Assembly: GCA_028286665.1 (NCBI GenBank)
Contig: JAQBRD010000012.1
Location: forward strand, 841-64,840
Origin: Candidatus Tayloriibacteriota bacterium
Lineage (GTDB): Bacteria; Patescibacteriota; Minisyncoccia; Phycocordibacterales; PALSA-1337
Length of the DNA: 64,000 bases
Reading direction: 5' to 3'
Below are positions 7,314-47,199 of the stretch, in pieces. The notes under the pieces were generated by a model. It was not told the origin of the DNA. It saw nothing but the letters and a program-made list of their open reading frames with translations, and did no database searches. The translations under genes and the position numbers were made by a program. Numbering within the stretch: the first letter of the stretch is position 1; every line of letters begins with the position of its first letter.

Positions 7314-7366
7314 ATTGGCATCGTGTGTGCTAGACTCTTATTTCTTCATAATTTTCTCAAAACCAT

Positions 7367-10080: not shown

Positions 10081-10156
10081 AATCTGCTTATTTTGCTTCA
10101 TTTATCCCCACTTTTTTGCTCAAAAAAGCCGCATTTCCGTGCTAAACTACTGGGGA

Positions 10157-13100: not shown

Positions 13101-16100
13101 TGGCAGGAGAGACTCTCGGCCAATACTTCACAGCCAATACGCAGACGGAATCTACGCTCCCTCGGCTTGTAAGCACAAACGCAACTTCTACCACGCTCGC
13201 AGCACTGACCTCGGTTGATATCGGAAGCGGGAATCTGATGCTTGCTGCCGGCGAGATTGGATTGACTAATACCTTGAATATCTGGGATCCTATCAACGGT
13301 GCAAATTCATCATTCATAGGATATGGTGGACAAAATGACGCGTCATATAATCATGAATTCTTCGGGACTATTCATGCGAACAGTGACCTATTTGTGAGCG
13401 GCACTTTGGCAAGCGATAACTGGAGCATTGATACCAACGGAAATTTCAACGGAACAGCGTCTAATGCTGGTTACGCGTATGGTGCAGGCTATGCATTTAA
13501 CGCAGGTTCAGATTTCAATAGTTTTTTTCATGCTAATGGATACCTAGGAGGCACCAACCTCTATGATGATGGCACCGCGTCTTTCGGAGGCGCTGTGAGC
13601 GGAGGTTCTTTTGCAGGCAATGGCTTCATTGGCTACAATTTCGGCAATAGCAATATCATGAATTCGGACGCTCCGAATGCGGCAACGGGGTACGTCACGC
13701 TTACTGGGGTACCTTCCGATGGTGACATGGTCACCATCTCAGACGGAATCGTTACATATAATTTCGAATTCGATAATGACAGCAATCTCCAGAATGGAGG
13801 AGATTATGGAGTGACGATCGGCGGCGGCACGACTGCGACAGCATACGCATTGTATGCGTCTGTGGGTAGTTCCGGGATGAATATGTCATATAGCATCGAC
13901 GATACGATCGATACGGTTTATTTCACTAATAGTTCATATGGCATAGCTGGAAATGTCACTATTACCAGCACGGCGGCGGATATTACCCTATCGGGCATGT
14001 CGGGCGGGTATGATGGCGGAGGCTATACCGGAAGCTATGCGTTCGGAAGCGGAAATACCATTCTTGCCAGCGGCGCGCACATTTTGGGAAGCAGCATAAC
14101 GAATAATATCGCAGATTCTGTCCAGATCGGCCCAAACAATGCGTCAAAAATAACCATCAACTCGAGCGGGAATGTCGGTATCGGCACGACTACCCCTTCG
14201 AATCGACTTTCAATCGGTTCTCGTAACCCAACGGATTCGACTGACAGGAAGGCTATCGAGCTGAATGCCGGAGGTTACGGAGCTCCCGGCGCATACGGCT
14301 CGAATTCAAACGGAGACAAGATCATTCTCTATAGGGATGCTGCCGCGAACTATGACTCGACGATCGGCGTCGGCGCTGCGGGGGACACCTGGTTCAAATC
14401 TTTCGGTCCTTCTACGACAGGGCAATTCGGCTGGTATACCGGCGGCAGCAGCACAGCGAGGATGGTTCTGGATCCTTTGGGAAATCTCGGCGTCGGCACG
14501 ACTACTCCTGGGTCGAAGCTTTCAGTCGGCGGCGACATCAATTTCACCGGCGATATATACAGGAACGGCGTGCTGTATTCTCAGACGCTTGCAACAAGCC
14601 AGTGGACGACTTCCGGGTCGAATATTTATTACAATACAGGGAGTATAGGAATCGGCACCGCAGCGCCTGATTCGCAATTCCATGTCTCAGGAAGCTCTAC
14701 CGGAGCGACGATTGTTCAGGGGAAGTTTGAGAATGTGAATGATTTCGGCAGAAGCCAATTCATCGTCACAAGCGGAACTTATCCGAACAATTTCTTTGCT
14801 CTGATGACCCATGGCAGTTCCTTCGCGAGCGACAACTATCTGAATGACGGAACTTCGGACGCGGGACTAGGATTGCTCCTCGGTCAGGGCACGCAGATGA
14901 CTAAATTCGCAGTCGGCACATATGATGCGAAGCCGCTGGCATTATTTACGAGCAACACGGAACGATTGAGTATCACATCGAGCGGCACTGTCGGCATCGG
15001 CACCACCACTCCCGCGGCAAAGCTCGCGGTCTCCGGAACCGCAGGCGTCACCACCGACATCTTCTCGGTGGCATCGTCGACGAACGCCAAATTCTTCACG
15101 GTCACTGCTGCAGGCAATGTCGGCGTCGGGTCATCGACTCCTTCCGCTAAGTTCGCCATCACCGGCACCGCGGGAACAGCAGACATATTCGCAGTAGCTT
15201 CGTCTACCGACGCGCGTCTTTTTACGATCACGAGTGACGGAAAGGTGGGAATCGGCACCACCACGCCGTCGGCTCGTCTCGGCCTTTACGGTATCGCTGG
15301 CACGTCGGATATCTTTGCAATCTCGTCCTCGTCGAATTCTCGACTCCTTACATTCACTTCTGCAGGAGAACTCGGCGTAGGAACTTCGACTCCTTCAGCG
15401 AAGCTCGCGGTCTCCGGAACCGCAGGCGTCACCACCGACATCTTCTCGGTGGCATCGTCGACGAACGCCAAATTCTTCACGGTCACTGCTGCAGGCAATG
15501 TCGGCGTCGGGTCATCGACTCCGATCGGCACTCTTTCAGTGAAAGGATCTGCTGCGCTCGATCCGTTTATCGTCGCATCCTCTACTGATAGCAGGCTCCT
15601 CACGCTTAATGCGCTCGGCAACCTCGGACTCGGGACCACCACCCCTTCAGCGAAGCTCGCAGTCTCCGGAACCGCAGGCGTCACCTCCGACATCTTCTCG
15701 GTCGCTTCATCGACGGACGCGAAGCTATTCACGGTGAAGAGCACCGGCTTCGTGGGCATCGGAACAGCCGTTCCTACTTCTGCGCTTACATTCGCTGACG
15801 CAAGCACGATCGATTCGATCGGAAGCTTGACGATCAAGTCGACGACGACGAATGCCCTCACGCTCGATTCCGGAACGACCGGAGCGATCGGCATCGGTAC
15901 GAGTGCAAACGCCAAGACGATAACTCTTGGAAACGGCACTGGCGCGACATCGCTCGTCCTCAACGCAGGAACGGGCAACATCGATATCGGCGTCAATGAC
16001 TTCGCTCGCAATATCAATATCGGCACCGGAGGTACCGCTGTTCAGACTATAGCAATAGGTGGTGCCGCAGCCAACGTCATCACGATCGGAACGACGCAGA

Positions 16101-17679: not shown

Positions 17680-20600
17680 ATGAAGCAGCGACTACCAAAT
17701 CAACGATGGTTATTTGCGCTAATAGCTTTTGCGATCGCGCTTTTTTCTATTTCTCCGAAAATTTCCCAGGCGTATTTCTCAGACATCTTCAAGGAAGGAG
17801 CTTCTGTCGTCATGTCCAGCACTTTGAATGGGATGAATGCTGTCGGAAAATCGACGATCCAGGCATTCTCATTCGAATCGATCAGGTCCTTCATTCCGAA
17901 CTTCATCAATTCAGCCGCATCAGGAATGAATTGCGGCGTAAATAAAATCGTCGGCGCTCCTCTTCCTGTTGTCTGCATGAAAAATCCGGCATCCGTCCTC
18001 GCAGCCGCATCAGCAGACGCATTTGTGCCTGTGCCTATGCCTGCGCACGCGTACGTTGCGGCTGTTCCGGCACCAGCATCAATATCAAAACCGTCTTCGG
18101 CATTATCGTCAGCCTCGATACCGACGCGACTCCCGCCTCCGTCTGCGCCGCAGGTCTCGACTCAGACGCAGCTTACTTCAGCAGAGTACGATGCTATTCA
18201 GCAGCAGCTTGCGAATATCGCCTTGGGCACCAGGAGTCAGCTTATCCGGCAGACGGACTCCACAGTCGATCATGTCGGCCAGTCCATGTCGAATCTCGCG
18301 ACGTCGGTCGCGTCTGCAGCGGCGAATGCATCGAACGCTGGCAATATCACTTCAGGCGTTCTGTCGGTCGCGCACGGAGGCACCGGAGCGACGTCAACTC
18401 CGACGTTCGGACAGGTCCTTCTCGGCAATGCAAGCGGCGGATATGATCTCGTATCGACATCGTCGCTCGGGATCACGAGCGGCGCCAGTTCGCAATGGAC
18501 CACATCAGGTTCCAATATCAGCTTCATTGCTGGCAATGTGGGCATCGGCTCATCGACGCCGATCGCGACGCTTTCAGTGAAGGGAACTGCAGGCACGAAC
18601 CCTTTCGTCGTCGCTTCGTCGACTGACGTGCAGCTCCTTACGCTCCTCCAGAATGGAAGCTTCGGCATCGGCACAAGTTCACCGGTATCGACCCTGTCCG
18701 TTGCGGGAAGCGGAACATTCACCGGAGGCGCAAGCTTCGGCGGCAGCGTCGGCATCGGCACGTCTACGCCGATCGCGACGCTTTCAGTGAAGGGAACTGC
18801 AGGCACGAACCCCTTCGTCGTCGCTTCGTCGACCGGCGCGCAGCTCCTTACGCTCCTCCAGAATGGAAGCTTCGGAATCGGAACTGCAGCTCCGAATGCA
18901 AACGCGATCCTCGACGTATTCCAGGGAGCGAGCACGACGCGCATCAGCAGAACGACGACGCAGTATATACAGTTCACCACGGACGGAGTGGTCAATGAAG
19001 TGAGGGGCGTGAGCGTTTCAGGAGGCGCGAAGCCTTTCCGAATCGCGAGCGATTCGAATAGCAGCGGCCTCCGCCTCTTCACCGGCACGACGGATAAAGT
19101 GTTCATCGACAACAACGGCTTGGTCGGCATCGGCTCGACGACGCCTTCTGCGCTGCTCACGCTGCTCGGATCAAATGCTGCGACAACGACGCTTTCGATC
19201 AGGCCTGCAGCATCGCAGACTGCGAGCCTCGTCAATTTCTATGATACTACTGGAGCGATCTCATCGGTCATCGCCGCTGGCGGAAACTTCGGCATCGGCA
19301 CGACGACTCCGGGATCCAAGCTTGTGGTGAACGGAGACATCAATCTCACCGGCAATATTTATCAGAACGGCGTCCTTTTCACGGGCGGCGGTGGAAGCTC
19401 GCAATGGACGTCTTCGAGCACTGATATTTATTACAATACCGGCAACGTCGGCATCGGCACCAATTCCCCGATATACAAGCTAGACATAGCCGGAACCGCT
19501 CATGTCTCAAGCGACCTCACTGTCGGCGGAATCTTCACGACGACCGCATTCACCGCAAATGGAACAGCCACATCCTTCAATGATGCGATAACTATAAATC
19601 AGTCTACAAGCTCGACGCGATTTGTCCGTCCTGGAACTCCTGTGTTGCAAGCTATCGACATCACGACTGACAGCAATTCGAATAGGATAAAAGCATTCGC
19701 TGGACCCGGCACGAACAAGCAATTCCGAATCGAAGCCGATATCGGAATGACTGGACTTTCGCTGAGAACAGGAGGTTCTGAACGAGTCCTCATCGGCCCG
19801 AGCGGAGACGTATCCGTCGGAACGGCATCGACGAGCGCAAGGTTCACTCTCATGGCGTCCTCATCTCCGACGTATGCGATATTCGATGTGACTGACACAT
19901 CGCGCAATTCTTTTTTCAAAGTCTTCGGCAACGGCTTTGTCGGCATCGGCACGACGACCCCTTCGGCAAGATTCGCGCTCGACGGATTCAGCGGCGCGGA
20001 TAATGCTAACGCATCGCAAGCACTCGCGATCTATGGTGGTAAGGGGGGTCTGAACAACAACGCGACTCCGGGCGGATTCAGCGGAGGAGGCATAGATCTT
20101 TTTGCCGGTCCGGGCGGAGATTCGAGCGGAGGCGGCGTCGACGGCGGCAGCGGAGGTGTCGTCAATATATTCGGCGGAGCAGGCGCATCGAACGGCGATG
20201 GTACCGAAAACGCAGGACTCGGAGGCGCAGTCAACATCGGCGCGGGCAACGGAGCTGCTTCTCTGGGCGGCGGCTTAGGAGGGGCGCTTACGCTCGCATC
20301 AGGAAATGGCGGCAATGATACTGCGAGTGGATTCGGTCAGCCTGGCGATGGCGGCCTCCTGAGCGTCATTGCAGGTTTTGGCGGATCAAGCAACGATAAT
20401 TCCGTGAATGGCGCGAATGGAGGAAATGTCATCATCAGCGGCGGAGCACCCGGGGCTGGTCTTGTCGCAGGCTCGTATGGAAATATCATCATGAATCAGA
20501 ACGGAGGAAAGGTCGGCATCGGCACCTCTACGCCTCTGTACAGACTTCATATCCAGCGATCCGGAGACGGACCGGTCGCAGGCTTCACCGATGCCAACGG

Positions 20601-21456
20601 CACATGTACCATCGATCCGACGTCGACATCGCTCATCTGTTCGTCCGATCGCCGACTCAAGAAAGATATCGTTTCAATAAATGGCGCAACAGCGCTCGAC
20701 CAGATCAATCAGCTCCAAGCTGTCAATTTCCGATGGAACAATCAATCGACTGATACGCTCCGCTTCGGATTCATCGCGCAGGATTTCGAAAAAGTATTCC
20801 CGCAGCTCGTCCAGACTGACGTCAACGGCTTCAAGAGCGTCGCATACACAGCGCTCACGCCTGTGCTCGCCGAAGCAATCAAGCAGCTTGATGTGAAAGT
20901 GAATGCGCTCACGATAGCGACGAGCACTTCGACTTTGAAGTCCATGATACAGGGCATAGGGGATTGGACTGTCGGAAAGATCACCGGAACAGTCGCGTTG
21001 TTCGGCGACCTGAAGGCCGACGCGCTGACGGTCGGATCGCCATCGAAGCCTTCGGGCATTACGCTGTATGACGGGGTCACCGGCCAGCCGTATTGCCTCA
21101 AGGTGATGAATGGAACAATGCAGAATTTCCCAGGGGATTGTGCAACTCCTACCTCGATTCAGCCTTCAAATCAGCCTTCGACCCCTGGAAACGTCCCTAT
21201 GAGCACTGTTTCCGATCCAAATACCGCAACAACGACAGTTACCACAGCCGGAACCGCTTCATCAGGCGAAACAAGCACTTCTACGGCTCCAGCAGCCACA
21301 TCCACCGAATCGGCAGTTACGACTGAAATAGCCACTTCTACAGCCCAGATGCCTGCACCGGAGCCAGAAATAGCCCCAATTACAGCCACGCCTGATCCAA
21401 CGCCCACACCAGTTTCAGAGCCTGCCGCGCCTGCGCCAGAGGTTCCAGTTCAGTAA
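17680..21456 (+). CDS. Paralogous giant secreted tail-fibre-like protein with C-terminal peptidase S74 domain
   Basis: The N-terminal about 90 aa are homologous to the upstream giant protein. Same repeat families. Gly-rich GGxGG block. The S74 motif SDRRLKKDIVSINGATALDQINQLQAVNFRWNNQSTDTLRFGFIAQDFEKVFPQLV is about 85% nucleotide-identical to the region of gene 1 around 16,740-17,080. A Cys mini-domain and PT-rich tail follow. TATAAT lies 8 nt before the ATG. Confidence 0.8.
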   Translation: MKQRLPNQRWLFALIAFAIALFSISPKISQAYFSDIFKEGASVVMSSTLNGMNAVGKSTIQAFSFESIRSFIPNFINSAASGMNCGVNKIVGAPLPVVCMKNPASVLAAASADAFVPVPMPAHAYVAAVPAPASISKPSSALSSASIPTRLPPPSAPQVSTQTQLTSAEYDAIQQQLANIALGTRSQLIRQTDSTVDHVGQSMSNLATSVASAAANASNAGNITSGVLSVAHGGTGATSTPTFGQVLLGNASGGYDLVSTSSLGITSGASSQWTTSGSNISFIAGNVGIGSSTPIATLSVKGTAGTNPFVVASSTDVQLLTLLQNGSFGIGTSSPVSTLSVAGSGTFTGGASFGGSVGIGTSTPIATLSVKGTAGTNPFVVASSTGAQLLTLLQNGSFGIGTAAPNANAILDVFQGASTTRISRTTTQYIQFTTDGVVNEVRGVSVSGGAKPFRIASDSNSSGLRLFTGTTDKVFIDNNGLVGIGSTTPSALLTLLGSNAATTTLSIRPAASQTASLVNFYDTTGAISSVIAAGGNFGIGTTTPGSKLVVNGDINLTGNIYQNGVLFTGGGGSSQWTSSSTDIYYNTGNVGIGTNSPIYKLDIAGTAHVSSDLTVGGIFTTTAFTANGTATSFNDAITINQSTSSTRFVRPGTPVLQAIDITTDSNSNRIKAFAGPGTNKQFRIEADIGMTGLSLRTGGSERVLIGPSGDVSVGTASTSARFTLMASSSPTYAIFDVTDTSRNSFFKVFGNGFVGIGTTTPSARFALDGFSGADNANASQALAIYGGKGGLNNNATPGGFSGGGIDLFAGPGGDSSGGGVDGGSGGVVNIFGGAGASNGDGTENAGLGGAVNIGAGNGAASLGGGLGGALTLASGNGGNDTASGFGQPGDGGLLSVIAGFGGSSNDNSVNGANGGNVIISGGAPGAGLVAGSYGNIIMNQNGGKVGIGTSTPLYRLHIQRSGDGPVAGFTDANGTCTIDPTSTSLICSSDRRLKKDIVSINGATALDQINQLQAVNFRWNNQSTDTLRFGFIAQDFEKVFPQLVQTDVNGFKSVAYTALTPVLAEAIKQLDVKVNALTIATSTSTLKSMIQGIGDWTVGKITGTVALFGDLKADALTVGSPSKPSGITLYDGVTGQPYCLKVMNGTMQNFPGDCATPTSIQPSNQPSTPGNVPMSTVSDPNTATTTVTTAGTASSGETSTSTAPAATSTESAVTTEIATSTAQMPAPEPEIAPITATPDPTPTPVSEPAAPAPEVPVQ

Positions 21457-27212: not shown

Positions 27213-27452
27213 ATGTCTAATGTAGAATTCGATGCTGATGAGCAGGGAGGCGGAAAACTCCAGCGCTTCAGCTCACAATACGCCTCTCAGTACGACGCTC
27301 AGCAGCCGAAACGCGCTTCCGGCATGGCTTCGTTGCTGATCAAGATGCACATCATCGACGATCCTGATCAGGCAAAAAACGTCTACGTCGTCGTCCTCAT
27401 CCTCAATTTCATCGCAGCGGGACTCATCTTCTATTTCTACGTACTCAGATGA
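27213..27452 (+). CDS. Small hypothetical protein with a C-terminal transmembrane helix
   Basis: 79 aa. Its stop overlaps the ATG of the pilin gene (ATGA), implying translational coupling. Confidence 0.4.
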   Translation: MSNVEFDADEQGGGKLQRFSSQYASQYDAQQPKRASGMASLLIKMHIIDDPDQAKNVYVVVLILNFIAAGLIFYFYVLR

Positions 27453-27997
27453 AAACGAATCGAGGCTTCACGCTTATCGAGCTTCTGGTCGTGATTTCAA
27501 TAGTAAGTCTTTTGTCGAGCATCGTTCTCGCATCGCTGACTTCAGCACGTGCAAAGAGCCGGGATACTCAGCGCATGCGCAATTTCCACGAGATCCAGAC
27601 TGCGCTGCAGCTGTATGCGACAGACAATGGCGGAAAGTTTCCTGATTCTTCGGCCATATTGCTCGACGATTTCATCGACAGCGTCGATGTTGCTCACCCC
27701 GGAGGCTGGTCGACGCTCAAGACTCAACTCGGCAGGTATATACGGAAGCTTCCGGTCGACCCGATGAATAACGGCAGATGGAGCGATGCTGTGGGGAATT
27801 ATTCCTACTCGTATTATTACAACGTGAATACCGATTCTGATTATGATCTGGTCGCGAAGCTCGAAAATGCCAGCAGTCCGTATCGGGCGACTGTACGGCA
27901 TTACTCTCGCCATTCGAGCGTCCTTCCGGGGTCCAGCGTGCTTTGGGAAAGCGTCCTTCCGAGCGCCGGTTCCAACCTCTTGTACTCTGATCATTGA
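27449..27997 (+). CDS. Type IV pilin / pseudopilin (prepilin-type N-terminal cleavage/methylation domain)
   Basis: N-terminal MKTNRG-FTLIELLVVISIV is the classic prepilin peptidase site (G|FTLIE). Confidence 0.8.
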   Translation: MKTNRGFTLIELLVVISIVSLLSSIVLASLTSARAKSRDTQRMRNFHEIQTALQLYATDNGGKFPDSSAILLDDFIDSVDVAHPGGWSTLKTQLGRYIRKLPVDPMNNGRWSDAVGNYSYSYYYNVNTDSDYDLVAKLENASSPYRATVRHYSRHSSVLPGSSVLWESVLPSAGSNLLYSDH

Positions 27998-28058: not shown

Positions 28059-28745
28059 ATGGCAATGCTAACACTTACGACAGAAAAGCGAGACACGAAG
28101 GCGGATCTTACGAAGGTCCGAGCGAGCGGGAAGATGCCGGCTGTTTTTTATGGCCCAAAAGAAGCATCGACCTCGATCACCGTATCTCAGACCGAGTTCG
28201 CCAAGGTATGGAAGAAGGCGGGCGAATCAGCAGTTATTATCCTTAAGGACGGCTCTAACGAGCATGAGGCTCTTATCCACGAAGTCGACGTTCATCCGGT
28301 ATCAGGCGCTCCTCGCCATGCCGATTTCTATGTCATCGAAAAGGGAAAGAAGGTAAAGGTTCACATCCCGATCGTCTTCAACGGCGTCGCTCCGGCAGTC
28401 AAGGACTTCGGCGGCATCCTCGTGAAGGTCCTCCGAGAAGTCGAAATCGAAGCAGCTCCGAAGGATCTTCCTCATGAGCTCGCAGTCGATCTTTCGACTC
28501 TTGTCGAAATGACAAGCACGATCACGGTGAAGGACATCAAGCTCCCAGCAGGCGTCACGCTCGTCGCAGCTCCAGATGAAATCGTCGCTTCAGTCGCAGT
28601 CGCGAAGGAAGAAGTCGAAGAAGTCGCTACCGCAGTCGACATGTCGGCTATCGAAGTCGAAAAGAAGGGCAAGGAAGCGAAGGAGGGTGCAGAAGGCGAA
28701 GAGGGCGCAGCTCCTGCAGATGCGAAGAAGGAAGGAAAGAAATAA
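28059..28745 (+). CDS. rplY: 50S ribosomal protein L25 / general stress protein Ctc
   Basis: L25/Ctc N-terminal beta-barrel (KMPAVFYG...) and C-terminal Ctc domain, with an acidic tail. Confidence 0.85.
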   Translation: MAMLTLTTEKRDTKADLTKVRASGKMPAVFYGPKEASTSITVSQTEFAKVWKKAGESAVIILKDGSNEHEALIHEVDVHPVSGAPRHADFYVIEKGKKVKVHIPIVFNGVAPAVKDFGGILVKVLREVEIEAAPKDLPHELAVDLSTLVEMTSTITVKDIKLPAGVTLVAAPDEIVASVAVAKEEVEEVATAVDMSAIEVEKKGKEAKEGAEGEEGAAPADAKKEGKK

Positions 28746-28769
28746 TCTCGAGCAATATCAATACGAAGG

Positions 28770-28800
28770 AACCCCCGCGATCTGCGGGGGTTTTCTTTTC
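28770..28800 (+). terminator. Rho-independent terminator after rplY
   Basis: CCCCCGC gatct GCGGGGG followed by TTTTCTTTTC. Confidence 0.8.
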
Positions 28801-28819
28801 GTGCTAAAATTAGCTGCAT

Positions 28820-31800
28820 ATGGCCGCAAATCGGATCTATTCAAAAAAAGCTTTTTTCAGCATATTTCTTTCTGTGCTTATGCCGCTGCTTCTCCTTTCT
28901 GTTCTGATCTCTGATCCGGCAAGTTCGGACGCTGCGGGGGGCTGCGCTCCTTCCATCTATTGGTATAAGACTGGAGCGGATGCGTACTGGACTACGCTCG
29001 CCGGCAATTGGTGGACGGATGAAGCGCATACTTCGCAAGCGTCAGCATTGCCTGCTTCAGGCGCTTGCGTCGGCACTGTTCCTGACAGTGAAATTCCCAT
29101 CGTCGTCGTCGATGACGTTCCTGAGGTATCTACCCTTGCCGGGATAGATGCGACAGCTACAGGAATCATTTTTACGAGCAGCGACGGTGCCTCGTTTCCA
29201 AACATACATTACGAAATTCAAGGCGATGTCACGCTCAAAGGTTCCGTCGTTCTTCAGGGCGAACTTCACGCTGCGGGCACCATCACATTCGATGGTACGA
29301 GCGTCAATCAAGGCTCGCCGGATCGCAATTCGCTCGTGTTCAGCGGAGCGAGCCATAATGAGGCGAATTTTCCTGGAGGCTCCGGAACATTTACGTTCAA
29401 CGGTTCGAGCTACAATACGGGATTTCTCGATGCAGCCTTCGTCACTTTCAATGGTTCGAGCCATAGCGACGGGGGTATTTTCGGCAGCATAACATTCAAT
29501 GGATCAAGCTACACTACTAACCAGATAGCCGGCGGCAGCCATACAATACTCAATACTGATCATTATGGCGGAGTGGTGCCTATCGGCGGCGTGCTCACGC
29601 TCAATGGAAACCAGAATTGGTGGGCAACTGAAGGAGGCAATGCGTATGATTCGAATGATCAGCTGATCACGTCATTCATATTCAACGGATCAAGCTATCT
29701 GCATCAGGATTCACAAGTCAGCGGCGATGCGGTATTCAACGATTCCAGCCATATCGATGGGAGTGTATCCGGCAATGCGAAGATGAACACAGATTATTAT
29801 GGCGGAGTAGTGCCGACCGGCGGCGTGATCACATTGAATGGGACGCAGGTATGGAATGCACCAGTCACCATGATTACGGATTCGAATGATGAACCGATCA
29901 CGTCAATCATTTTCAATGAATCAAGCTATAATGCGGGCACTGTTAATGCCATGGCCGCATTCAATGGCTCCGCGTATAATGCAGGTTACATATACGGCAC
30001 CTCGACCTTCAATGGCGTCAGCTTTAATGGCGCGGGCGGCACTCCTGGTTCGGTAGCGATTTTCAATGCTTCGAGCAGCAACCGGAGCGATGTTATGGGG
30101 GAAGCAACCTTCAATGACTCAGCTTATAATACCGGCAACCTCTATAACACCGCCACATTCAATGCATCGAGCAGCAACCTGTACGGAGCATCGATCTACA
30201 GTCCTGCGACTTTCAATGGTACGAGCTACAATGAAGGCTACATCGAAGCGCTGACGACATTCAATGCATCGAGCAGCAATGCGGGAGGAGGAATTATCAA
30301 TGGCGATGCCGAATTCCATGGTGTGAGCTATAACGGCGGCAGCGTGACCGGCAGCGCGACATTCAACGACTCGACGTATAACATATTCAACGTTGCGGTC
30401 TTGGCGACATTCAATGACTTCAGCCATAATGACGCAGCTACTGATTTTCCTGCTGATGCGATATTCAATGATTCGAGCTTCAATCAGACCAATGCGGTCG
30501 TGTATGGACATGCGACATTCAATGACCTGAGCTATAACCTGGGAACTATCGATTCGGATGCGACATTCAACACGGCATATTACGGGGGAGTCCTTCCTGC
30601 GGGCGGGCTTTTCACGATAGGCGGCGGAAAATCCTGGTACGGCAGCGTTGGAAATATTGCATTCGGTTCAGACGATGCCACTATCACGGCATTCGCATTC
30701 ATGGGAACGAGCACCAACGAGGGCACGGTTTTCGCGACTGTTCCTGCGAATGCGACGACCACCTTCTATGAAGACCTGTCAGAGAACCATGGCATCGTCA
30801 ATGGAACGAAAGTTCGGCGATACACGTCGAACGCCACGACGACCCGCAATTTCATCACCAGCGGTCCTTGGACGGTGATCGCTGACGGGGCGACGGTCGA
30901 TCTTTCCGGATCGAGTTTCAATGCGACGACGACTTTCCGGACTCTGAATGGCGGAGCGTTCGGGGTGCTTTCGACTGCTTGCGCCGCTCCATTGCCAGGA
31001 ACCCTCTCGTACGTCCTCTCCGGGGATATTTCAGGAAGCTGTACTGTAGCTTCGAGCGACGTCACGATCGATGGAAATGATCATGCGATCTCCGGCAATG
31101 TCATCGCCAACGGCATCGCAAGCGGCGCATCCGGTTTCAATCTGAATCTTGCCCGCGTCACGGTCGGCGGCACGGTTTCTTCGAACGGTGCCAACGGCAC
31201 GATCGGAGGATCAGGTGGCACGATCACCATATCCAGTTCGACGGTTGCGGCGGTGAGAGCGAACGGAGGAAATGGAACAGGGAATGGCGGCAACGGAGGA
31301 ATCATCGCACTGGTAGATTCGACGAGTACGGCATTGAGCGCGAATGGAGGCAATAGCTCGAATAACGGAGCGGGAGGTTCCGGCGGCACGATAAGTCTCG
31401 AAAACTCGACATCAACCTCGATCTCGGTCTCTGCGGGAACGGACGGTCCGAATAAGAATCCAGCGCAAGATTCCGGCCATGGCGGCACAAGCCATGCGAC
31501 AGATACCGCGCCTCCGGTCATAACTCTGAATGGAAGCAGCGCCGTCTCGATCGCCTTCGGCGGCACGTATGTCGAATTGGGCGCGACTGCGGTGGATGCG
31601 GTTTCAGGCTCGCGTACCGTGGTCATTTCCGGATCGGTGAATACTGCCGTTGCCGGAGTCTATGTGAAAACATACACTGCTGCTGACGCTGCCGGAAACA
31701 GCGCAAGCAAGACGAGAACGATCACCGTGCGTGCCCAAGCTACAGCAGCCAATACTAATCCTCCAGGAGGAGCTGCGACGCCAGCGCATGCTTCATCGCG

Positions 31801-32515
31801 ATCATCCGGTTCTGCTGCCATGCTTCCGACGCTCAATTTGGCTCCGCTTCCTTCATTCAGCAATAGCGTTTCAAACAATCTCGGAGTCTCGCATCTCGGC
31901 AACCCTCTCGAAGGCCTCAAGGCTTTCAGTTCGCTGAAGCTTTCCACGCTCTCGTTCAAGTTCGTGCCGCAGATCTCGACATTCGTCTTCGCGCCGCTTC
32001 CAGCATCGGTTGCGAAGATACTCGGCAGATCTCCGAAGCTGTCGAACCTCGTCGCATCCGTCGGCGTCTCTCGCGAGCAGGATCTCGTCGCGCTTCTCCG
32101 GAACCCGATCCTGATCCCGAAGCCTGCTGCAGGCGACATTCCGCCAGGACTCTTCATCGCGACTGCCTCCAGCACGCCGCTCGAGCTGTATCTCGCCGGA
32201 GACGCTGAGCATCGTCTTGCGGAACTTGTCCGGACGCAGCCGGGAACTGTTCTCGATATCGCATTCGTGCCGCTGAGCAAGAGCAGCGTACAGGCCAAAT
32301 TCCGCGGCAGCCCGATCAAATTCTTCGCATCGCGCACGGCAGAGGTGCATGCAGTAATCGCTGCTCCTGATGTTCCCGGCAGATATTTCATGACTACTTC
32401 CGCCGCTCCATTTCCGCTCATCATCGAAGTTGTCGCACTGAAGCAGCAGTCTGCGCCGGCGAAGCCTGAGGCGAAAGGGAAGTTCGGCAGCTGGCTGAGC
32501 GGACTGTTTCATTAA
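28820..32515 (+). CDS. Large secreted protein with tandem about 20-aa N-x-S/T-sequon repeats, a Gly-rich block and a DUF5011-like Ig domain
   Basis: Signal peptide. At least 20 units of the form ATFN[GDA]SSYN-G between about 29390 and 30560. A Gly-rich GGxGG region at about 31080-31440. The segment DTAPPVITLNGSS...GATAVDAVSG...YVKTYTAADAAGN...TRTITV matches the bacterial Ig-like DUF5011 pattern. TGCTAAAAT lies 9 nt upstream. Confidence 0.8.
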   Translation: MAANRIYSKKAFFSIFLSVLMPLLLLSVLISDPASSDAAGGCAPSIYWYKTGADAYWTTLAGNWWTDEAHTSQASALPASGACVGTVPDSEIPIVVVDDVPEVSTLAGIDATATGIIFTSSDGASFPNIHYEIQGDVTLKGSVVLQGELHAAGTITFDGTSVNQGSPDRNSLVFSGASHNEANFPGGSGTFTFNGSSYNTGFLDAAFVTFNGSSHSDGGIFGSITFNGSSYTTNQIAGGSHTILNTDHYGGVVPIGGVLTLNGNQNWWATEGGNAYDSNDQLITSFIFNGSSYLHQDSQVSGDAVFNDSSHIDGSVSGNAKMNTDYYGGVVPTGGVITLNGTQVWNAPVTMITDSNDEPITSIIFNESSYNAGTVNAMAAFNGSAYNAGYIYGTSTFNGVSFNGAGGTPGSVAIFNASSSNRSDVMGEATFNDSAYNTGNLYNTATFNASSSNLYGASIYSPATFNGTSYNEGYIEALTTFNASSSNAGGGIINGDAEFHGVSYNGGSVTGSATFNDSTYNIFNVAVLATFNDFSHNDAATDFPADAIFNDSSFNQTNAVVYGHATFNDLSYNLGTIDSDATFNTAYYGGVLPAGGLFTIGGGKSWYGSVGNIAFGSDDATITAFAFMGTSTNEGTVFATVPANATTTFYEDLSENHGIVNGTKVRRYTSNATTTRNFITSGPWTVIADGATVDLSGSSFNATTTFRTLNGGAFGVLSTACAAPLPGTLSYVLSGDISGSCTVASSDVTIDGNDHAISGNVIANGIASGASGFNLNLARVTVGGTVSSNGANGTIGGSGGTITISSSTVAAVRANGGNGTGNGGNGGIIALVDSTSTALSANGGNSSNNGAGGSGGTISLENSTSTSISVSAGTDGPNKNPAQDSGHGGTSHATDTAPPVITLNGSSAVSIAFGGTYVELGATAVDAVSGSRTVVISGSVNTAVAGVYVKTYTAADAAGNSASKTRTITVRAQATAANTNPPGGAATPAHASSRSSGSAAMLPTLNLAPLPSFSNSVSNNLGVSHLGNPLEGLKAFSSLKLSTLSFKFVPQISTFVFAPLPASVAKILGRSPKLSNLVASVGVSREQDLVALLRNPILIPKPAAGDIPPGLFIATASSTPLELYLAGDAEHRLAELVRTQPGTVLDIAFVPLSKSSVQAKFRGSPIKFFASRTAEVHAVIAAPDVPGRYFMTTSAAPFPLIIEVVALKQQSAPAKPEAKGKFGSWLSGLFH

Positions 32516-32560: not shown

Positions 32561-32947
32561 ATGTTCAAATTCACCACAGGGCTTCTCGAAAAAACTCGTC
32601 TCATGTCGAATATCCTGATGTTCCTTCTGCTCATCGGCAACATCTTCTTCAGCGTCCAGTATACGGAGCGGATGAAGGAGCAGGTTTTCGAAAATCAGCT
32701 CACAAGCCAGACTGAAGCCGACCGCGCCCAGATATCCCATTTTCTCAAGTTCTTCATCGACACCGTCATCAATACGCAGGGAACCGTTTCCTTCGATGAC
32801 CGAGTCAAGCTCGAGAACGATATCCGTCAGATCCACAATCCGGAACTCACCAAGCAGTGGGAGGATTTCGTCGGCAGCAAGGATAGCAAGACAGCCCAGC
32901 AGAATGCCGTGAAGCTCATGTCGATGCTCGTCGGCAAGATGGTCTAG
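32561..32947 (+). CDS. Hypothetical protein with an N-terminal transmembrane anchor
   Basis: 128 aa with no recognisable domain. A perfect 32-nt palindromic terminator follows. Confidence 0.5.
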   Translation: MFKFTTGLLEKTRLMSNILMFLLLIGNIFFSVQYTERMKEQVFENQLTSQTEADRAQISHFLKFFIDTVINTQGTVSFDDRVKLENDIRQIHNPELTKQWEDFVGSKDSKTAQQNAVKLMSMLVGKMV

Positions 32948-35640: not shown

Positions 35641-36585
35641 TTAGAGTCCGAGAGCGGTCGTAATACTGAACTGAGTTGTCGTTCGCGTGTTTCCTGCAGC
35701 ATCCTTCGATTCCGCTACCATATAGTACTTGGTCGATGTGCTGAGTCCTGAGAGGGCAATCTCGTGGTTCGTCACAAGAGAAGCATTATCAACGCGTGCG
35801 GTGCTTGTCGAATTCACATTGACTGGATTCGTCGCTGAGAAATAGACTCGCGTCGTCGCAGCTTCATTCGTGTTCCAGAAAACCTTCGCTGATGTCGATG
35901 CTACGGTCGCGTACAGGCTGGTCATGACTGGTGCTCGGGTGTCTGAAACCGTCGAGCTTGCCTGAGTCGTGAAAGAGAATTGGCCAGATGTCGTCGCATT
36001 TCCGGCGTTGTCTCGCACTTCGATGAGCGCATAGTACGTAGTGCTTGCGCTGAGGTTTGAAATCGTTACGTCGTGATTTTTCGTCATCTCATTTCTCACG
36101 GCGATTCGCGTAGTCGAAGCTGTCTTCGATGCCGGCGTACTCGTGCTTACGAAGATCTTCGCATCAGATCTCTCATTCGTCGACCATCGAATTTCTGCAG
36201 CACTGCCTGTGGTCTGAGTCACGATGGCGCTTATGACCGGCGCGAGCGTATCGTGGGCATCGCGGTCCTCGTTGTTTCGATTTTCATTGTCGCGATCATC
36301 ATGCGTGCGGTCTTCATTTTGAAATTTATTTGCGATGCCGTTCGGAATATGGCATCGGCCTGACATGTCTGCTGCAGTGACTGCTCCGTTGAGCTTGATC
36401 CATCCAGGAGCGATGAGATGTCCGTACGCATGGAAGCAGCTTTCTTTCTGGAGCACTTTGTCAGCGCCTCGGTCATTGCCCTTGCCATTCTCCTTTGCGA
36501 AGCTGACGCTCGGGCTCATCGCGATCGTCGCTGCGAGCGCTGTTATGGCTGCAAGCTTGCTGAAAGTCATATTGTGTTTATTCAT
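35641..36585 (-). CDS. Secreted protein with two fibronectin type III-like domains
   Basis: Signal peptide MNKHNMTFSKLAAITALAATIAMSPSVSFA. Two FN3-like units (DT-APV...W-T-E...LS-STTYY...D-AGN...F-T). The start was trimmed from the ORF-track start (36762) to Met60 (36585). Confidence 0.65.
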   Translation of the reverse strand: MNKHNMTFSKLAAITALAATIAMSPSVSFAKENGKGNDRGADKVLQKESCFHAYGHLIAPGWIKLNGAVTAADMSGRCHIPNGIANKFQNEDRTHDDRDNENRNNEDRDAHDTLAPVISAIVTQTTGSAAEIRWSTNERSDAKIFVSTSTPASKTASTTRIAVRNEMTKNHDVTISNLSASTTYYALIEVRDNAGNATTSGQFSFTTQASSTVSDTRAPVMTSLYATVASTSAKVFWNTNEAATTRVYFSATNPVNVNSTSTARVDNASLVTNHEIALSGLSTSTKYYMVAESKDAAGNTRTTTQFSITTALGL

Positions 36586-36733
36586 GATGTTTGGGTTATT
36601 GGTAATGGTACAAGGCCGATGACGCGGGGCAGCGGCAATCCTTACATCGACAAATAATGGATTATGTTGTATTTTAGTAAATGTAAGAAAGTCATTCCAA
36701 GGACGTCTGCCCATATAGGGTCTCCACATACTG

Positions 36734-37264
36734 ATGAACTCAAGCCTCGAAAAAGCATTCATAGACCTCTATGCAAAGGAAGCCGACGCTGTCTTTCGCT
36801 TCTGCCTTATGCGCACATCGAATCGCGACGTGGCAAGGGATCTCACGCAGGAAGCATTCACGAAGATCTGGACAAGCATGCAGGACGGCATCGATATTCA
36901 GAATATGCGGGCATTCGTATTCAAGGTCTCAAGGAATCTCCTGATCGACTGGTACCGGAAGAAGAAGCCGTCATCTCTCGATGCGATGGCAGATGAGGAT
37001 ATCCATGGTGAGATCGCTCTCGTCGAGGACGGCGCCGAAATGGCCGCAGAGATGAGCGCGGAAGCGAGATTCCTCATAGCGAAGATCGGGGAACTGGAAC
37101 CGGCGTATCAGCAGGTCGTCTATCTCAGGTTCGTCGAAGACTTGAAGCCGCAGGAGATCGCAGATGCTCTCGGAGAATCGGTGAATGTCATATCGGTGCG
37201 GATAACGAGAGGGATCGAGAAGCTTCGGCAGATGACAGGATATGAGAAAGAAAATTCCAAATGA
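36734..37264 (+). CDS. ECF-family RNA polymerase sigma factor
   Basis: Region 2 (FRFCLMRTSNRDVARDLTQEAFTKIW) and region 4 (VVYLRFVEDLKPQEIADALGESVNVISVRITRGIEKLR). Confidence 0.85.
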   Translation: MNSSLEKAFIDLYAKEADAVFRFCLMRTSNRDVARDLTQEAFTKIWTSMQDGIDIQNMRAFVFKVSRNLLIDWYRKKKPSSLDAMADEDIHGEIALVEDGAEMAAEMSAEARFLIAKIGELEPAYQQVVYLRFVEDLKPQEIADALGESVNVISVRITRGIEKLRQMTGYEKENSK

Positions 37265-41160: not shown

Positions 41161-43803
41161 ATGGATACGACCGCCAGCAGACAACCTTTTCTTGTCGACG
41201 TGCTCGGCAGAAGGCAGAAAATCCACTTGCGGGTTCTCATAACTCTCTGGCTGTTGAGCGTATCCGCATTCTGGATCTGGTGGCTGTCACCGCTGCATAT
41301 GGGAGACATGGCAAGGTTTGCGATAAACACCGTCATCCTGGCATGGAATTCGCTGCTGCCCGGTTTCTATTTTTATTTCCTGAACCGGATGAAGAAGCAG
41401 AATCCGGATCTGAAGATTCCTCGGCATTGGAGGATCGCCATGGTCGTCACCCGCGCTCCGTCGGAGCCTTTCGAACTCGTGAAGAAGACGCTCATCTCCA
41501 TGAAATTGCAGGACTTGCCGCATGATACGTGGTTGGCTGACGAGGATCCTACTCTTGAAATACGAGAGTGGTGCGCGAAGCACGGAATATGCATCTCGAC
41601 ACGCAAAGGGAATGCCGAATATTATCAGCAGAATTGGCCGAGAAGGGAGAAGTGCAAGGAGGGCAATCTCGCCTATTTCTACGATCATTACGGCTATCGG
41701 AGATATGATTTCGTGTCGCAGCTCGATGCGGATCATGTTCCAAGTCCGGGCTATCTGCATGAAATGATCTTGCCGTTCGTCGATCCGAAAGTCGGGTACG
41801 TTTCGGCGCCGAGCATATGCGATGTGAATGCACAGGGAAGCTGGGCCGCCCGCGGGCGGCTTTTCGCCGAGGCGACGCTTCACGGAACGCTTCAGGCCGG
41901 ATACACCAATGGCTGGGCGCCGCTTTGCATCGGCTCTCATTATGCGGTGCGCACGGAAGCGCTGAGCGAAATCGGAGGACTCGGCCCGGAGCTCGCCGAA
42001 GATCATTCGACCACGCTCATGATGAATGCCTTCGGCTGGAAGGGAGTCCATGCGCTGAATGCTGAAGCGCATGGCGATGGCCCGACCACTTTCATGGATT
42101 CGATGACGCAGGAATTCCAGTGGGCGAGGAGCCTCGTCATGCTCCTGCTTACAGTCACTCCGGGATGCTGGAAGCGCCTCACTCCGAAATTCCGATTCCA
42201 GTTCATTTTCTCGCAGCTCTGGTATCCTATTTTCGGAGTACTGATGCTTGCGGCATACATGTCTCCGCTGGTAGCGGTCATGACCGGCGTACCGTGGGTG
42301 CATATTTCATATATTCAATTTCTCGCCTATTCTTTCTTTCCGTTCACGACCGCTCTGCTCGTCGTCGCTTGGGTGAGGAGACAGCATCTGATGCGTCCGG
42401 CCGATGTGAAAATATTGAGCTGGGAAGGCGCAATCTTCCAGCTCGTCCGATGGCCGTGGGTGCTATGGGCGACATGCGATGCTATCCGCACTGCGGTCTT
42501 CAAGAAGAAATGCGTCTGGCGCATCACTCCCAAGGGCCGAGTCGAAGAGGTCGCGATTTCCCTCAAGGCAATATGGCCGTACGCATCGATAGTCTGCCTC
42601 TCCGGCCTGAGCGTGCTTCTCGCGGTGAGGAACCCTGAGATAAAGGGATATTACTGGTTCGCCTTCATCAATTGCTTCGCATATCTCGCCTGCATCGGGA
42701 TCATCATCGTCCGGCATGTGTTCGAAAATAAGATAGCGATGAATTTCAGGAACGTTTTCCTGCGATGGGGGAAACATCTCGTCATGATGCTCATCCTGAT
42801 GTTCCTCACCGGCTCGGCAGTGTACGTGCATGGAGAAGACGCGTGGAGCGGAATCACTTGGAATAGCGGCTCGATCCTCAACTGCCGGAACTTTTCTTCC
42901 ATCTGCGAGCTCGGCGGGACGACGACGCTGGTTGCTGAAAAGAATCGCATCGGATTCGGCGCATACGATCCATCGGAAGTCTTTCAGGGCAAGCAGTTGG
43001 CCATCGAGCACGTATTCATTTCCTGGAATTCGTATGGGAAAGGCAGCATCGCGCGCGATCTCGCTGGAATCGAAGGCCGCGGAAGAGAGCCGCTTCTGAC
43101 CATCGAGCCGTGGCTGGATCCGTCGGTGAGCAGCAGCACGGATGTGCTGAGCGATGTCGCAGCCGGAATATACGATAGCAAGATCAATGACATGTGTTCT
43201 GAAATAGCAGCTTCCGAAGCTCCCGTATTCGTCCGTTGGGGACATGAAATGGAAACGATAAGCAACCGAAGCCGTTATCCGTGGGCAGTCGAAGATGCGC
43301 CGAAGTATCAGCGGGCGTATCGGCATTTCGTAGAGCAATGCAGGGCAAGCGCGAAGAATGTCCTCTATGTCTGGTCGCCGGCTGGAGATAAGGGTTTGGA
43401 AAGATATTGGCCTGGCTCCGAGTATGTCGATTCCGTCGGAATCTCTATCTATGGATTCCCGGAGTGGGATCTGCATTATTTCAAGAAAGTCCGCTCATTC
43501 GCGGAGATAATGAAGGAAAAATATGCCCGAGTCGAAAAGTATCGGAAGCCGATAATGATCGCGGAGCTCGGCGTGGCAGGCGACAAGGCGCATCAGCTCA
43601 CATGGATGCTCATCGCGCTCGACGAGCTGCGCGGCTTTCCGCTCGTCACGAATGCGGTATATTTCAATTCTCTGGATAATCCGAAGGCTTGGGGCGATGG
43701 CTATTCGACGCCGGACTGGAGCATGGATCCGAAAGCCTTTCCCACGACGATGCCGATCACTGCGCCGATGATCGCTCCTGCAGCGAACTCCGAGAACCAG
43801 TGA
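41161..43803 (+). CDS. Fusion protein: processive family-2 glycosyltransferase (cellulose-synthase-like, QxxRW) with transmembrane region and a C-terminal GH26-like glycoside hydrolase domain
   Basis: GT2 motifs (D...QLDADH... and QEFQWARS, the QxxRW motif). At least six transmembrane helices. In the C-terminal domain, VRWGHEME and IMIAELGV match the GH26 acid/base (HE[MF]N) and nucleophile (ITELG/D) motifs. Confidence 0.75.
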   Translation: MDTTASRQPFLVDVLGRRQKIHLRVLITLWLLSVSAFWIWWLSPLHMGDMARFAINTVILAWNSLLPGFYFYFLNRMKKQNPDLKIPRHWRIAMVVTRAPSEPFELVKKTLISMKLQDLPHDTWLADEDPTLEIREWCAKHGICISTRKGNAEYYQQNWPRREKCKEGNLAYFYDHYGYRRYDFVSQLDADHVPSPGYLHEMILPFVDPKVGYVSAPSICDVNAQGSWAARGRLFAEATLHGTLQAGYTNGWAPLCIGSHYAVRTEALSEIGGLGPELAEDHSTTLMMNAFGWKGVHALNAEAHGDGPTTFMDSMTQEFQWARSLVMLLLTVTPGCWKRLTPKFRFQFIFSQLWYPIFGVLMLAAYMSPLVAVMTGVPWVHISYIQFLAYSFFPFTTALLVVAWVRRQHLMRPADVKILSWEGAIFQLVRWPWVLWATCDAIRTAVFKKKCVWRITPKGRVEEVAISLKAIWPYASIVCLSGLSVLLAVRNPEIKGYYWFAFINCFAYLACIGIIIVRHVFENKIAMNFRNVFLRWGKHLVMMLILMFLTGSAVYVHGEDAWSGITWNSGSILNCRNFSSICELGGTTTLVAEKNRIGFGAYDPSEVFQGKQLAIEHVFISWNSYGKGSIARDLAGIEGRGREPLLTIEPWLDPSVSSSTDVLSDVAAGIYDSKINDMCSEIAASEAPVFVRWGHEMETISNRSRYPWAVEDAPKYQRAYRHFVEQCRASAKNVLYVWSPAGDKGLERYWPGSEYVDSVGISIYGFPEWDLHYFKKVRSFAEIMKEKYARVEKYRKPIMIAELGVAGDKAHQLTWMLIALDELRGFPLVTNAVYFNSLDNPKAWGDGYSTPDWSMDPKAFPTTMPITAPMIAPAANSENQ

Positions 43804-46563: not shown

Positions 46564-47199
46564 ATGTCATTTCGCATTCGTGTGAGATGTAGTACTATGG
46601 ATCTCATGAAGAAGACCTACGAAATCCTCGGCGAAATGCTCAAGCTCAATCCATCGATCACGCACCTCTGCCTGCGGCTGTACGAAAGCAAGACCGGTCT
46701 CGCTGCGACGCATGACGATGCGTTCCGGTATGAATGGATCAGCACTGATCTCGCCTCGGATGTTTCAGAAATCAGCGCGCTCATATCTGAGTTCGAAAAG
46801 GAGGGCTGGACAGTCGGCCTTGCGAGCATGGTCATGACGACCGAGGGCATCATGCACCTGCTCATGCTCGACTATCTCGTCGCGCCATCGGCCAATGCTG
46901 AAGGCGATCTCGCGTGGAAGCTCTCGACCTTCAATCAGAGCGGCGACGTGAACTATCGAATGGACGGCTATCTCATACGAACGAAGAATTCATATCATTA
47001 CCTGAGCAAGTACATCACGACCGAAGCGAATTTCATCAACTTCCTCGGCAGCGCGCTCTTATTCCGGCATTCTGAAGAAGGCGAGTCGCACATCGTCGAT
47101 GACATCTGGCTCGGCCGATCCATCAAGCGGCGTTTCGGCACCATCCGCCTCGGCAAAAAAGAAGGAATCTATCCCACGGTCGCAAGCGAGGTGAAATGA
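46564..47199 (+). CDS. Hypothetical protein
   Basis: 211-aa ORF with no recognisable motifs. An alternative start is at 46597. Confidence 0.45.
   Translation: MSFRIRVRCSTMDLMKKTYEILGEMLKLNPSITHLCLRLYESKTGLAATHDDAFRYEWISTDLASDVSEISALISEFEKEGWTVGLASMVMTTEGIMHLLMLDYLVAPSANAEGDLAWKLSTFNQSGDVNYRMDGYLIRTKNSYHYLSKYITTEANFINFLGSALLFRHSEEGESHIVDDIWLGRSIKRRFGTIRLGKKEGIYPTVASEVK

Follow-up and report, generated by a model that had tools for sequence, protein, structure and literature searches.

A predicted beta-helical surface protein of a Candidatus Taylorbacteria bacterium and a candidate tethering cassette for large surface proteins of Patescibacteria

Introduction

Long parallel beta-helices built from short repeats are exported to the cell surface as classical autotransporters, such as Hap and the IgA1 protease, and as adhesins of two-partner secretion (TPS) systems, such as HMW1, EtpA, and HxuA. 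Here, we analyzed a protein of 1,231 aa that resembles them in these respects. It is encoded on the (+) strand at positions 28820–32515 of a 64,000-nt stretch of contig JAQBRD010000012.1 (the window, to which all coordinates refer unless a homologous locus is named) from a metagenome-assembled genome (MAG) of Candidatus Taylorbacteria, a lineage of the Candidate Phyla Radiation (CPR; Patescibacteria). The CPR are ultrasmall bacteria that represent a substantial part of bacterial diversity. They are usually described as cells without an outer membrane; to our knowledge, all members cultivated so far live attached to host cells. The epibiotic growth of a cultivated patescibacterium needs multiple adhesins (PMC10633639).

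The described systems closest to this locus differ in which part of it they resemble. HMW1 of Haemophilus influenzae, which is associated with HMW1C, is likewise a large exported protein of the beta-helix type with many N-x-S/T sequons. Solved bactofilin structures are three-sided beta-helices whose turns contain a comparable number of residues. In Firmicutes, the WxL-domain/Csc clusters provide non-covalent C-terminal surface anchoring and are co-encoded with small membrane proteins; they share with our locus a C-terminal domain carried by diverse exported proteins, a small membrane partner, and the presence of several cassettes per genome. Finally, passages in PMC11166332 and PMC10715098 describe the chlamydial Pmps as a surface family with FxxN and GGA[ILV] motifs that occur once per predicted beta-helix coil, and a short Phe/Asn motif recurring per coil of a predicted beta-helix is also what we found here.

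Results

A periodic Phe-Asn array is predicted to form a three-sided beta-helix

The reading frame is open for all 1,231 codons, as a sequence-only reading of this DNA had stated, and its product is identical to the hypothetical protein JWO73_292 of a Candidatus Taylorbacteria MAG, which also encodes a paralogue (P0003). Between aa 190 and 596 (29387–30607, (+) strand), the protein consists of 23 rungs, mostly 16–18 aa long, with the consensus G-[ND]-A-T-F-N-[DG]-[ST]-S-Y-N-x-G-T-[VI]-x (the FN array). Two rungs with insertions measure 26–27 aa, and a related third segment lies at ~aa 597–624. Pairs of F-N recurred 11 times at a spacing of 16–18 residues, compared with a maximum of 2 in 2,000 shuffles, which places the periodicity far beyond chance. 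The tandem array that had been noticed at ~29390–30560, with ~20 units of ~20 aa, is therefore real, but its period is mostly 16–18 aa. The accompanying statement that each unit carries N-x-S/T was too strong: the sequon occupies its canonical place in 15 of the 23 rungs. Tandem Repeats Finder detected no 48- to 54-nt repeat at the DNA level, indicating that the array is old, diverged, and maintained at the protein level.

Two AlphaFold2 (AF2) models were computed, one for aa 36–740 aligned with 20 homologue segments (21 sequences in total) and one for aa 741–1231. The first had a mean predicted local distance difference test (pLDDT) score of 82, with most array rungs above 90. According to DSSP, nearly every modeled rung comprises a strand (A-T-F), a turn (N-G-S-S), a second strand (Y-N), a turn (x-G), a third strand (x-[IV]), and a closing turn. 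Since three short strands per rung recur in constant register, the model supports a three-sided beta-helix, and the predicted stacking of short-strand rungs in a regular repeat places the protein in the parallel beta-helix/beta-solenoid fold class. We ran Foldseek with the N-terminal model against PDB and BFVD and with the C-terminal model against PDB. All neighbors of the N-terminal model had a beta-helix or solenoid fold (best E = 0.077 in PDB and 1.2e-3 in BFVD, both non-significant) and included IgA1 protease, Hap, RsaA, PL6 lyases, HxuA, tailspikes, phage neck appendages, and parallel beta-helix proteins, with beta-helical adhesins at the top. The sequence-only reading had offered a beta-helix or beta-roll adhesin with stacked Asn ladders as one of two interpretations and had proposed structure prediction as a check of solenoid stacking; the prediction did return a solenoid, with pLDDT mostly >90 in the rungs, and the three strands per rung, the solenoid-only (albeit non-significant) neighbors, and the conservation pattern described below all agree with a beta-helix.

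Searching 1.84 billion representative proteins with a profile revealed 1,749 clusters at E ≤ 1e-3 and 517 at E ≤ 1e-30, and the repeats have no model in Pfam-A or NCBIfam. Bactofilin (PF04519) was the only Pfam family that recurred on the repeats (8 of 21 family members). Specifically, the 1,231-aa protein scored E = 0.0054 and 17.4 bits, below the cut-off of 27.9, whereas some homologues exceeded the threshold, such as P0015, in which FN-type rungs at aa 560–637 gave E = 8e-16 and 58.5 bits. Sequence searches of the PDB used three queries (the whole protein, the 21-sequence profile, and a homologue segment that scores as bactofilin) and returned only the Ig-like entry 2kpn; the repeats themselves matched nothing. 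Members of the family combine the repeats with LamG, with PG_binding_1, with bactofilin-scoring stretches, or with PATR repeats and an autotransporter barrel. The last case is P0012 (locus L003, 8001–12629), a true classical autotransporter with a PF03797 barrel and PATR repeats whose passenger is formed by FN-type rungs; its gene lies beside RND/OEP efflux genes in a diderm genome, and the FN module is therefore not restricted to CPR. Taken by themselves, the FN rungs are not unusual for large CPR surface proteins: their fold class is well known, and their sequence family lacks annotation.

The C-terminal domain is mostly encoded next to a 128-aa membrane protein

The less expected result concerns the other end of the protein, where aa 1035–1215 (31922–32464, (+) strand) form a conserved domain that contains an FLFAPLP motif and is predicted to fold into four short helices and then an Ig-like beta-sandwich (AF2 pLDDT >90 over aa 1060–1200). 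It is followed by a C-terminal tail (32465–32512, (+) strand) that is predicted to contain a short amphipathic helix, G-K-F-G-S-W-L-S-G-L-F-H (AF2 helix at aa 1222–1229; hydrophobic moment computed), and across the family the extreme C-terminus follows the motif W-[FL]-x-x-[LIW]-F-[RKHN] (alignment columns 601–636). A C-terminal domain of ~230 aa had been suspected from the sequence, and we found it to be a real conserved module of ~200–230 aa that BLAST detected in 26 other proteins among 88 homology-search hits. A homology search that used only the C-terminal 222 aa gave zero matches, not even to the protein itself; we took this null to be an artefact of candidate selection, given that BLAST does locate the domain among the 88 full-length hits. 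In the Foldseek search, the C-terminal model resembled only generic Ig/filamin/IPT folds (E >0.02). One of these matches, 6s7t_G (E = 0.028), is one of the subunits of human oligosaccharyltransferase, but the likeness is that of a generic beta-sandwich and was rejected as evidence for glycosylation.

A second open reading frame (ORF) begins 45 nt downstream of the gene (32561–32947, (+) strand) and encodes a predicted 128-aa bitopic membrane protein with a short basic N-terminus, one transmembrane helix (aa ~14–34), and ~90 soluble residues. Neither this protein nor the C-terminal domain matched Pfam or NCBIfam. Homologues of the small protein with 53–64% identity are encoded directly downstream of P0008, P0014, P0006, and P0004, all four of which share the C-terminal domain, and the small gene thus lies immediately downstream in the window and at loci L001 and L004–L006. 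At L005 (the P0006 locus), the database call (10501–10887, (−) strand) is on the wrong strand, and the true homologue is located at 10456–10833 on the (+) strand. In comparison, the small gene is absent from loci L002 and L003, where the FN-repeat proteins P0011 and P0012 end in other C-termini.

We then used the small protein as a query against one genome per species, which yielded 35 CPR loci, 31 of them informative, i.e., with enough upstream sequence. In 26 of these 31 loci, a hidden Markov model (HMM) of the C-terminal domain matched a same-strand frame ending just upstream of the small gene, with gaps of 18 to ~260 nt where measured. The upstream frames varied from 288 to >2,650 aa, with some truncated where the contig ends, and most of them lack FN rungs, indicating that the pairing is with the C-terminal domain and not with the beta-helix. 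The small proteins are 42–64% identical across loci of many CPR MAGs, several of which contain two cassettes each. The small-protein family comprises at least 717 clusters at 90% identity, with lengths of ~124–136 aa among those listed. All named members are called hypothetical except P0284, which JGI/IMG labels as a predicted component of the type VI protein secretion system, an unverified label that is probably a spurious automated assignment.

The C-termini of P0011 (PG_binding_1) and P0012 (autotransporter barrel) are known envelope-binding or membrane-anchor modules, and we therefore regard the C-terminus of the 1,231-aa protein as its probable attachment end and the N-terminal cap as the distal tip. 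Based on the position and synteny of the two genes, we propose, tentatively and at somewhat less than even confidence, that the C-terminal domain (aa 1035–1231) and the 128-aa protein constitute a new Patescibacteria-specific tether or export system for diverse large surface proteins. Each cargo gene may be accompanied by its own copy of the membrane partner, with the FN beta-helix being one of many cargos. At locus L013, the small gene (8001–8384) follows a frame (6541–7830) whose C-terminus appears SecY-like by eye; this neighbor hints at a possible role of the small protein in export, instead of or besides anchoring. A toxin/immunity pair was also considered and rejected, as the C-terminal domain and especially the small protein are conserved and the variation lies in the N-terminal parts, whereas polymorphic toxins show the reverse pattern. 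The libraries and the literature that we searched contain no description of this cassette.

The sequons most likely follow the structure of the rung

The alternative interpretation in the sequence-only reading was a substrate designed for N-glycosylation by an HMW1C- or PglB-type enzyme. The whole protein contains 26 N-x-S/T sequons, compared with 20.5±3.7 in composition-matched shuffles (~1.5 standard deviations), and the array contains 17, compared with 10.9±2.7 (~2.3 standard deviations). The resulting density, 21 per 1,000 aa, is the highest among the large ORFs of the window. A unit HMM retrieved 599 rungs from 67 homologues, in which F4 is conserved in 99%, N5 in 96%, S8 in 90% (100% when Ser, Thr, and Ala are counted), and N10 in 88%, of which the F-N values are inflated by the seeding of the HMM from the 1,231-aa protein. 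The comparison between positions 7 and 8 is fair, as both had similar weight in the seed. Position 7, the +2 position of the sequon, is Ser or Thr in ~78% of the rungs (Ser 54% versus Thr 25%), and the sequon is kept in 452 of 599 (~75%). Since Ser/Thr at +2 is kept less often than S8, selection appears to act on a structural F-N-x-x-S-x-N pattern that merely overlaps the sequon. The regular N-x-S/T would then be a by-product of the fold, because position 7 of the N-[GD]-[ST]-S turn prefers Ser or Thr.

The bacterial PglB sequon requires Asp or Glu at position −2 (D/E-x-N-x-S/T). We found this residue in none of the 26 sequons of the 1,231-aa protein and in only 9 of the 452 homologue sequons. 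A Pfam scan of ~40 ORFs of the 64-kb window uncovered no STT3/PglB, GT41, or Omp85 gene, and neither did the precomputed Pfam tables of six homologue loci; the search for HMW1C-like or PglB-type enzymes that had been suggested is thus negative within this scope. The sole glycosyltransferase found in the window is an 880-aa membrane protein (41161–43803, (+) strand) in which a cellulose-synthase-like GT2 domain is fused to GH26; from its domains, it looks like a polysaccharide synthase and not a protein glycosyltransferase. The literature search returned nothing that links N-glycosylation or an N-oligosaccharyltransferase to CPR in this context. Collectively, the conservation at +2, the near-composition density, the missing acidic residue, and the lack of an enzyme among the scanned window ORFs leave the designed-substrate interpretation unsupported, and the regular N-x-S/T sites are most likely structural corners of the beta-helix.

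Remaining modules of the protein

The secretion that had been predicted is consistent with the N-terminus (aa 1–38; 28820–28933, (+) strand), which resembles a Sec-type signal peptide: KK precedes a 19-residue hydrophobic stretch with the core FFSIFLSVLMPLLLLSVLI, the sole hydrophobic window of the protein, and a polar stretch ends in ASSDA, where the putative cleavage site lies. It is followed by a cap module with a W-x3-G-N-W motif and the first irregular rungs (aa 39–189; 28934–29386, (+) strand), in which the AF2 strands begin at ~aa 115. BLAST with individual segments showed that the cap is common to 40 other proteins among the hits and the FN array to 72; in three homologue segments that we extracted, W-x3-G-N-W is doubled, each copy preceding a helical segment.

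Downstream of the array, a middle beta-helix section with degenerate rungs (aa 597–740; 30608–31039, (+) strand) retains AF2 strands to ~aa 715 (pLDDT ~85–93) and has conserved counterparts in 46 other proteins from the hit list. The AF2-predicted beta-helix continues through the adjoining Gly-rich section (aa 741–895; 31040–31504, (+) strand), which has predicted beta structure, comprises three ~27-aa repeats of the form NGGxGxxGGxGGxIxI-STxxxx with GGxGG at aa 796, 823, and 852, reaches pLDDT 89–97 over aa 741–840, and recurs in 58 other proteins. This section had been likened to giant gene 2 of the window (described below), a likeness that holds at the motif level, with GGxGG three times in each, but not at the level of alignment: neither of the two giant genes aligned significantly (E = 0.66 for giant gene 2).

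The DUF5011-like Ig domain that had been recognized by eye was confirmed as a bacterial surface Ig-like domain (PF16403, Bact_surface_Ig-like/DUF5011) at aa 901–970 (31520–31729, (+) strand), with E = 8.8e-16 and 58.2 bits versus a gathering cut-off of 27. It was the only hit when the whole protein was scanned against Pfam at E ≤ 1, corresponds to PDB entry 2kpn (E = 8e-06), and occurs in 24 other proteins among the hits. A low-complexity Ala/Ser/Pro linker (aa 971–1034; 31730–31921, (+) strand; AF2 pLDDT <50) then leads to the C-terminal domain, and aa 976–1010 of this linker matched only themselves.

Transcription context and neighboring genes

Upstream of the gene lie a pilin-like gene with an N_methyl motif (27449–27997) and rplY (L25/TL5; 28059–28745), both as previously read. 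A pilin gene next to an FN-repeat gene was seen in the window and at L002 only and is therefore not consistent across loci; likewise, genes of 270–333 aa located ahead of homologues have no counterpart in the window and were discarded as conserved upstream neighbors. Directly past the rplY stop codon (28745) and 5′ of the gene, an intrinsic-terminator-like hairpin (28768–28794, (+) strand) with a 12-pair stem, of which 7 are G-C pairs, is followed by the T-run in TTTTCTTTTC and divides the gene from rplY. The terminator context attributed to the gene thus exists as a strong hairpin, but it belongs after rplY; a terminator scan found none 3′ of the gene, where the next ORF begins.

The extended −10-like element that had been assigned to the gene reads TGcTAAAAT (28801–28809, (+) strand) and is plausible as a motif match, although a scan for two hexamers did not report it. 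As the element ends 10 nt ahead of the ATG, the 5′ leader would be very short or absent, and no Shine-Dalgarno sequence is visible ahead of the ATG within 28801–28822. Judged from these nucleotides, the transcript may be leaderless or nearly so. The genes near the ORF, besides rplY, the pilin-like gene, and the gene for the 128-aa membrane protein, are those for tRNA-Gln and a NUDIX protein.

Further from the gene, two adjacent giant genes on the (+) strand (giant gene 1, 10139–17611, 2,490 aa; giant gene 2, 17680–21456, 1,258 aa, with a GGxGG-rich block at aa 786–864) each encode Peptidase_S74, the intramolecular chaperone of the endosialidase/tail-fibre type, near the C-terminus. This arrangement suggests that the CPR genome may encode self-cleaving trimeric fibre proteins. 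A 373-aa ORF (35641–36762, (−) strand) with FN3/purple-acid-phosphatase-N-like repeats has a raised sequon density (13 per 1,000 aa) and is divergent from an extracytoplasmic function (ECF)-type sigma factor gene (36734–37264, (+) strand), with which it overlaps at the 5′ end. Finally, a 211-aa ORF (46564–47199, (+) strand) matches an archaeo-eukaryotic primase (AEP)-like, 1D-like family (E = 1e-12) and may be the remnant of a mobile element.

Discussion

We consider it probable that the 1,231-aa protein is a Sec-exported, envelope-tethered beta-helical stalk or adhesin of the Candidatus Taylorbacteria cell. In the mechanism that we envisage, the protein would be exported by the Sec pathway and would then fold outside the membrane into a rod. 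Each unit of 16–18 residues would form one rung, with A-T-F, Y-N, and x-[IV] as its three strands; the core would be packed by Phe4, by the small residues Ala2 and Ser8, and by [IV]14, while Asn5 and Asn10 would occupy the strand-turn corners and might form ladders, by analogy with other beta-helices. The helix would run from ~aa 115 to ~aa 880, through the FN array, the degenerate middle section, and the three Gly-rich 27-aa rungs, which at ~40 rungs of 4.8 Å would give a rod of ~15–20 nm. The W-x3-G-N-W cap would be located at the distal tip, and the DUF5011 Ig-like domain and the flexible linker would join the rod to the C-terminal domain. The latter, with its four helices, beta-sandwich, and amphipathic tail, would hold the protein at the envelope, probably via the extracytoplasmic part of the co-encoded 128-aa bitopic protein. 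The cap and the helix faces could then be presented for contact with a host cell or a surface, a proposed role that fits the adhesin requirement of epibiotic Patescibacteria (PMC10633639).

The protein would work like the beta-helical adhesin stalks of the described systems but falls outside the autotransporter, TPS/HMW1, bactofilin, RTX, and Pmp families, since none of the defining features tested was found. Unlike autotransporters and TPS adhesins, it has no beta-barrel, TPS domain, or PATR repeats: Pfam detected neither the C-terminal 12-strand barrel of type Va autotransporters (PF03797, which P0012 does contain) nor, at E ≤ 1, Haemagg_act (PF05860). Its rungs span 16–18 aa, and its attachment end is a helical-plus-Ig-like domain paired with a small membrane protein. 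In contrast to HMW1, no HMW1B-like (Omp85) transporter or HMW1C/GT41 gene is adjacent or among the scanned window ORFs, and the sequon is not the best conserved part of the rung. Bactofilins are short, cytoplasmic, and polymer-forming, whereas this protein of 1,231 aa is predicted to be exported and has ~40 rungs and a conserved F-N/S/N pattern that is not in the bactofilin consensus. The Pmps, which are autotransporters, differ in motif and register (here G-[ND]-A-T-F-N-x-S-S-Y-N), and there is no Pfam Pmp match. A Ca2+-dependent RTX beta-roll, made of GGxGxDxUx nonapeptides, was rejected on the basis of the 16- to 18-aa period (27 aa in the Gly-rich section), the lack of a conserved Asp in the Gly-rich motif, and the absence of an RTX match in Pfam. 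For the WxL/Csc clusters, the analogy is one of arrangement, as there is no sequence relationship, the predicted fold is different, and the partner here consists of one bitopic protein of 128 aa.

Three other explanations deserve to be weighed against a stalk or adhesin. If the array were a true multi-site N-glycosylation substrate, it would form a glycan-coated rod with at least 15 regularly spaced target Asn residues, modified by a relaxed-sequon PglB/AglB-type oligosaccharyltransferase or a cytoplasmic HMW1C-like transferase encoded elsewhere in the genome. The signal-peptide-like N-terminus, the number and density of sites, and their retention in three-quarters of the homologous rungs would all suit such a substrate, as would the precedent of HMW1, an N-glycosylated adhesin likewise described as beta-helical; moreover, for this genome the enzyme search was confined to ORFs of the 64-kb window. 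Yet the counts stay within ~1.5 (whole protein) and ~2.3 (array) standard deviations of the shuffles, position +2 is less conserved than the non-sequon residues S8 and N10 and favors Ser over Thr, an acidic residue at −2 is nearly absent, and neither a TPS domain in the protein nor a GT41, STT3/PglB, or Omp85 gene in the scanned ORFs and loci points to a glycosylation system. The same repeat also serves as the passenger of the diderm autotransporter P0012, i.e., in an unrelated export context, and no paper that we found ties CPR to an N-oligosaccharyltransferase in this context. We therefore regard a glycosylated rod as very unlikely.

The two remaining explanations keep the beta-helix and change its task. 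A structural role in the envelope, as a subunit of an S-layer or a sheath, or a role as an array that binds ice or minerals, with flat faces lined by Thr and Tyr forming a lattice or binding a crystal, is suggested by the S-layer protein RsaA and the ice-binding protein 5uyt among the Foldseek neighbors and by Thr at rung positions 3 (59%) and 13 (41%), which would draw Thr lines on two faces. Both matches are non-significant (E >0.3), within-strand T-x-T pairs typical of ice-binding beta-helices are lacking, and the several paralogous cassettes per genome, with very different N-terminal parts, fit a variable adhesin repertoire better than a lattice; we rate this explanation as unlikely. A carbohydrate-active enzyme that attacks the host envelope, i.e., a polysaccharide lyase or hydrolase with a pectate-lyase or tailspike-like fold, would account for the PL6 alginate lyases, GH55 glucanases, and phage tailspikes among the neighbors, but all of these matches are non-significant, and no catalytic family was detected by Pfam or NCBIfam. 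The active-site clefts of pectate-lyase-fold enzymes are built from rungs of ~22 aa or longer with long T3 loops. The rungs here are thinner, and insertions are limited to the two 26- to 27-aa rungs and the segment at ~aa 597–624, making an enzyme the least probable of these explanations.

Several observations weigh against the envelope-tethered stalk itself. Neither AF2 model had a Foldseek match at E ≤ 0.001, and the apparent conservation of F-N owes part of its strength to the seeding of the unit HMM. In five of the informative loci, L013 among them, the small gene is not preceded by the C-terminal domain, and the evidence for an anchoring role of this domain and the small protein consists of synteny and position.

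Our analysis has implications at three levels. First of all, it defines a rung family of ~1,750 representative clusters that has no Pfam-A or NCBIfam model and extends to a diderm autotransporter. It also marks the regular "sequons" of the array as a false lead, in that they are most likely corners of a beta-helix and not the sign of a hidden N-glycosylation system. Above all, the cassette of the C-terminal domain and its small membrane partner, with at least 717 small-protein clusters and the pairing found in 26 of 31 loci, provides a testable candidate for how large surface proteins may be held on CPR cells.

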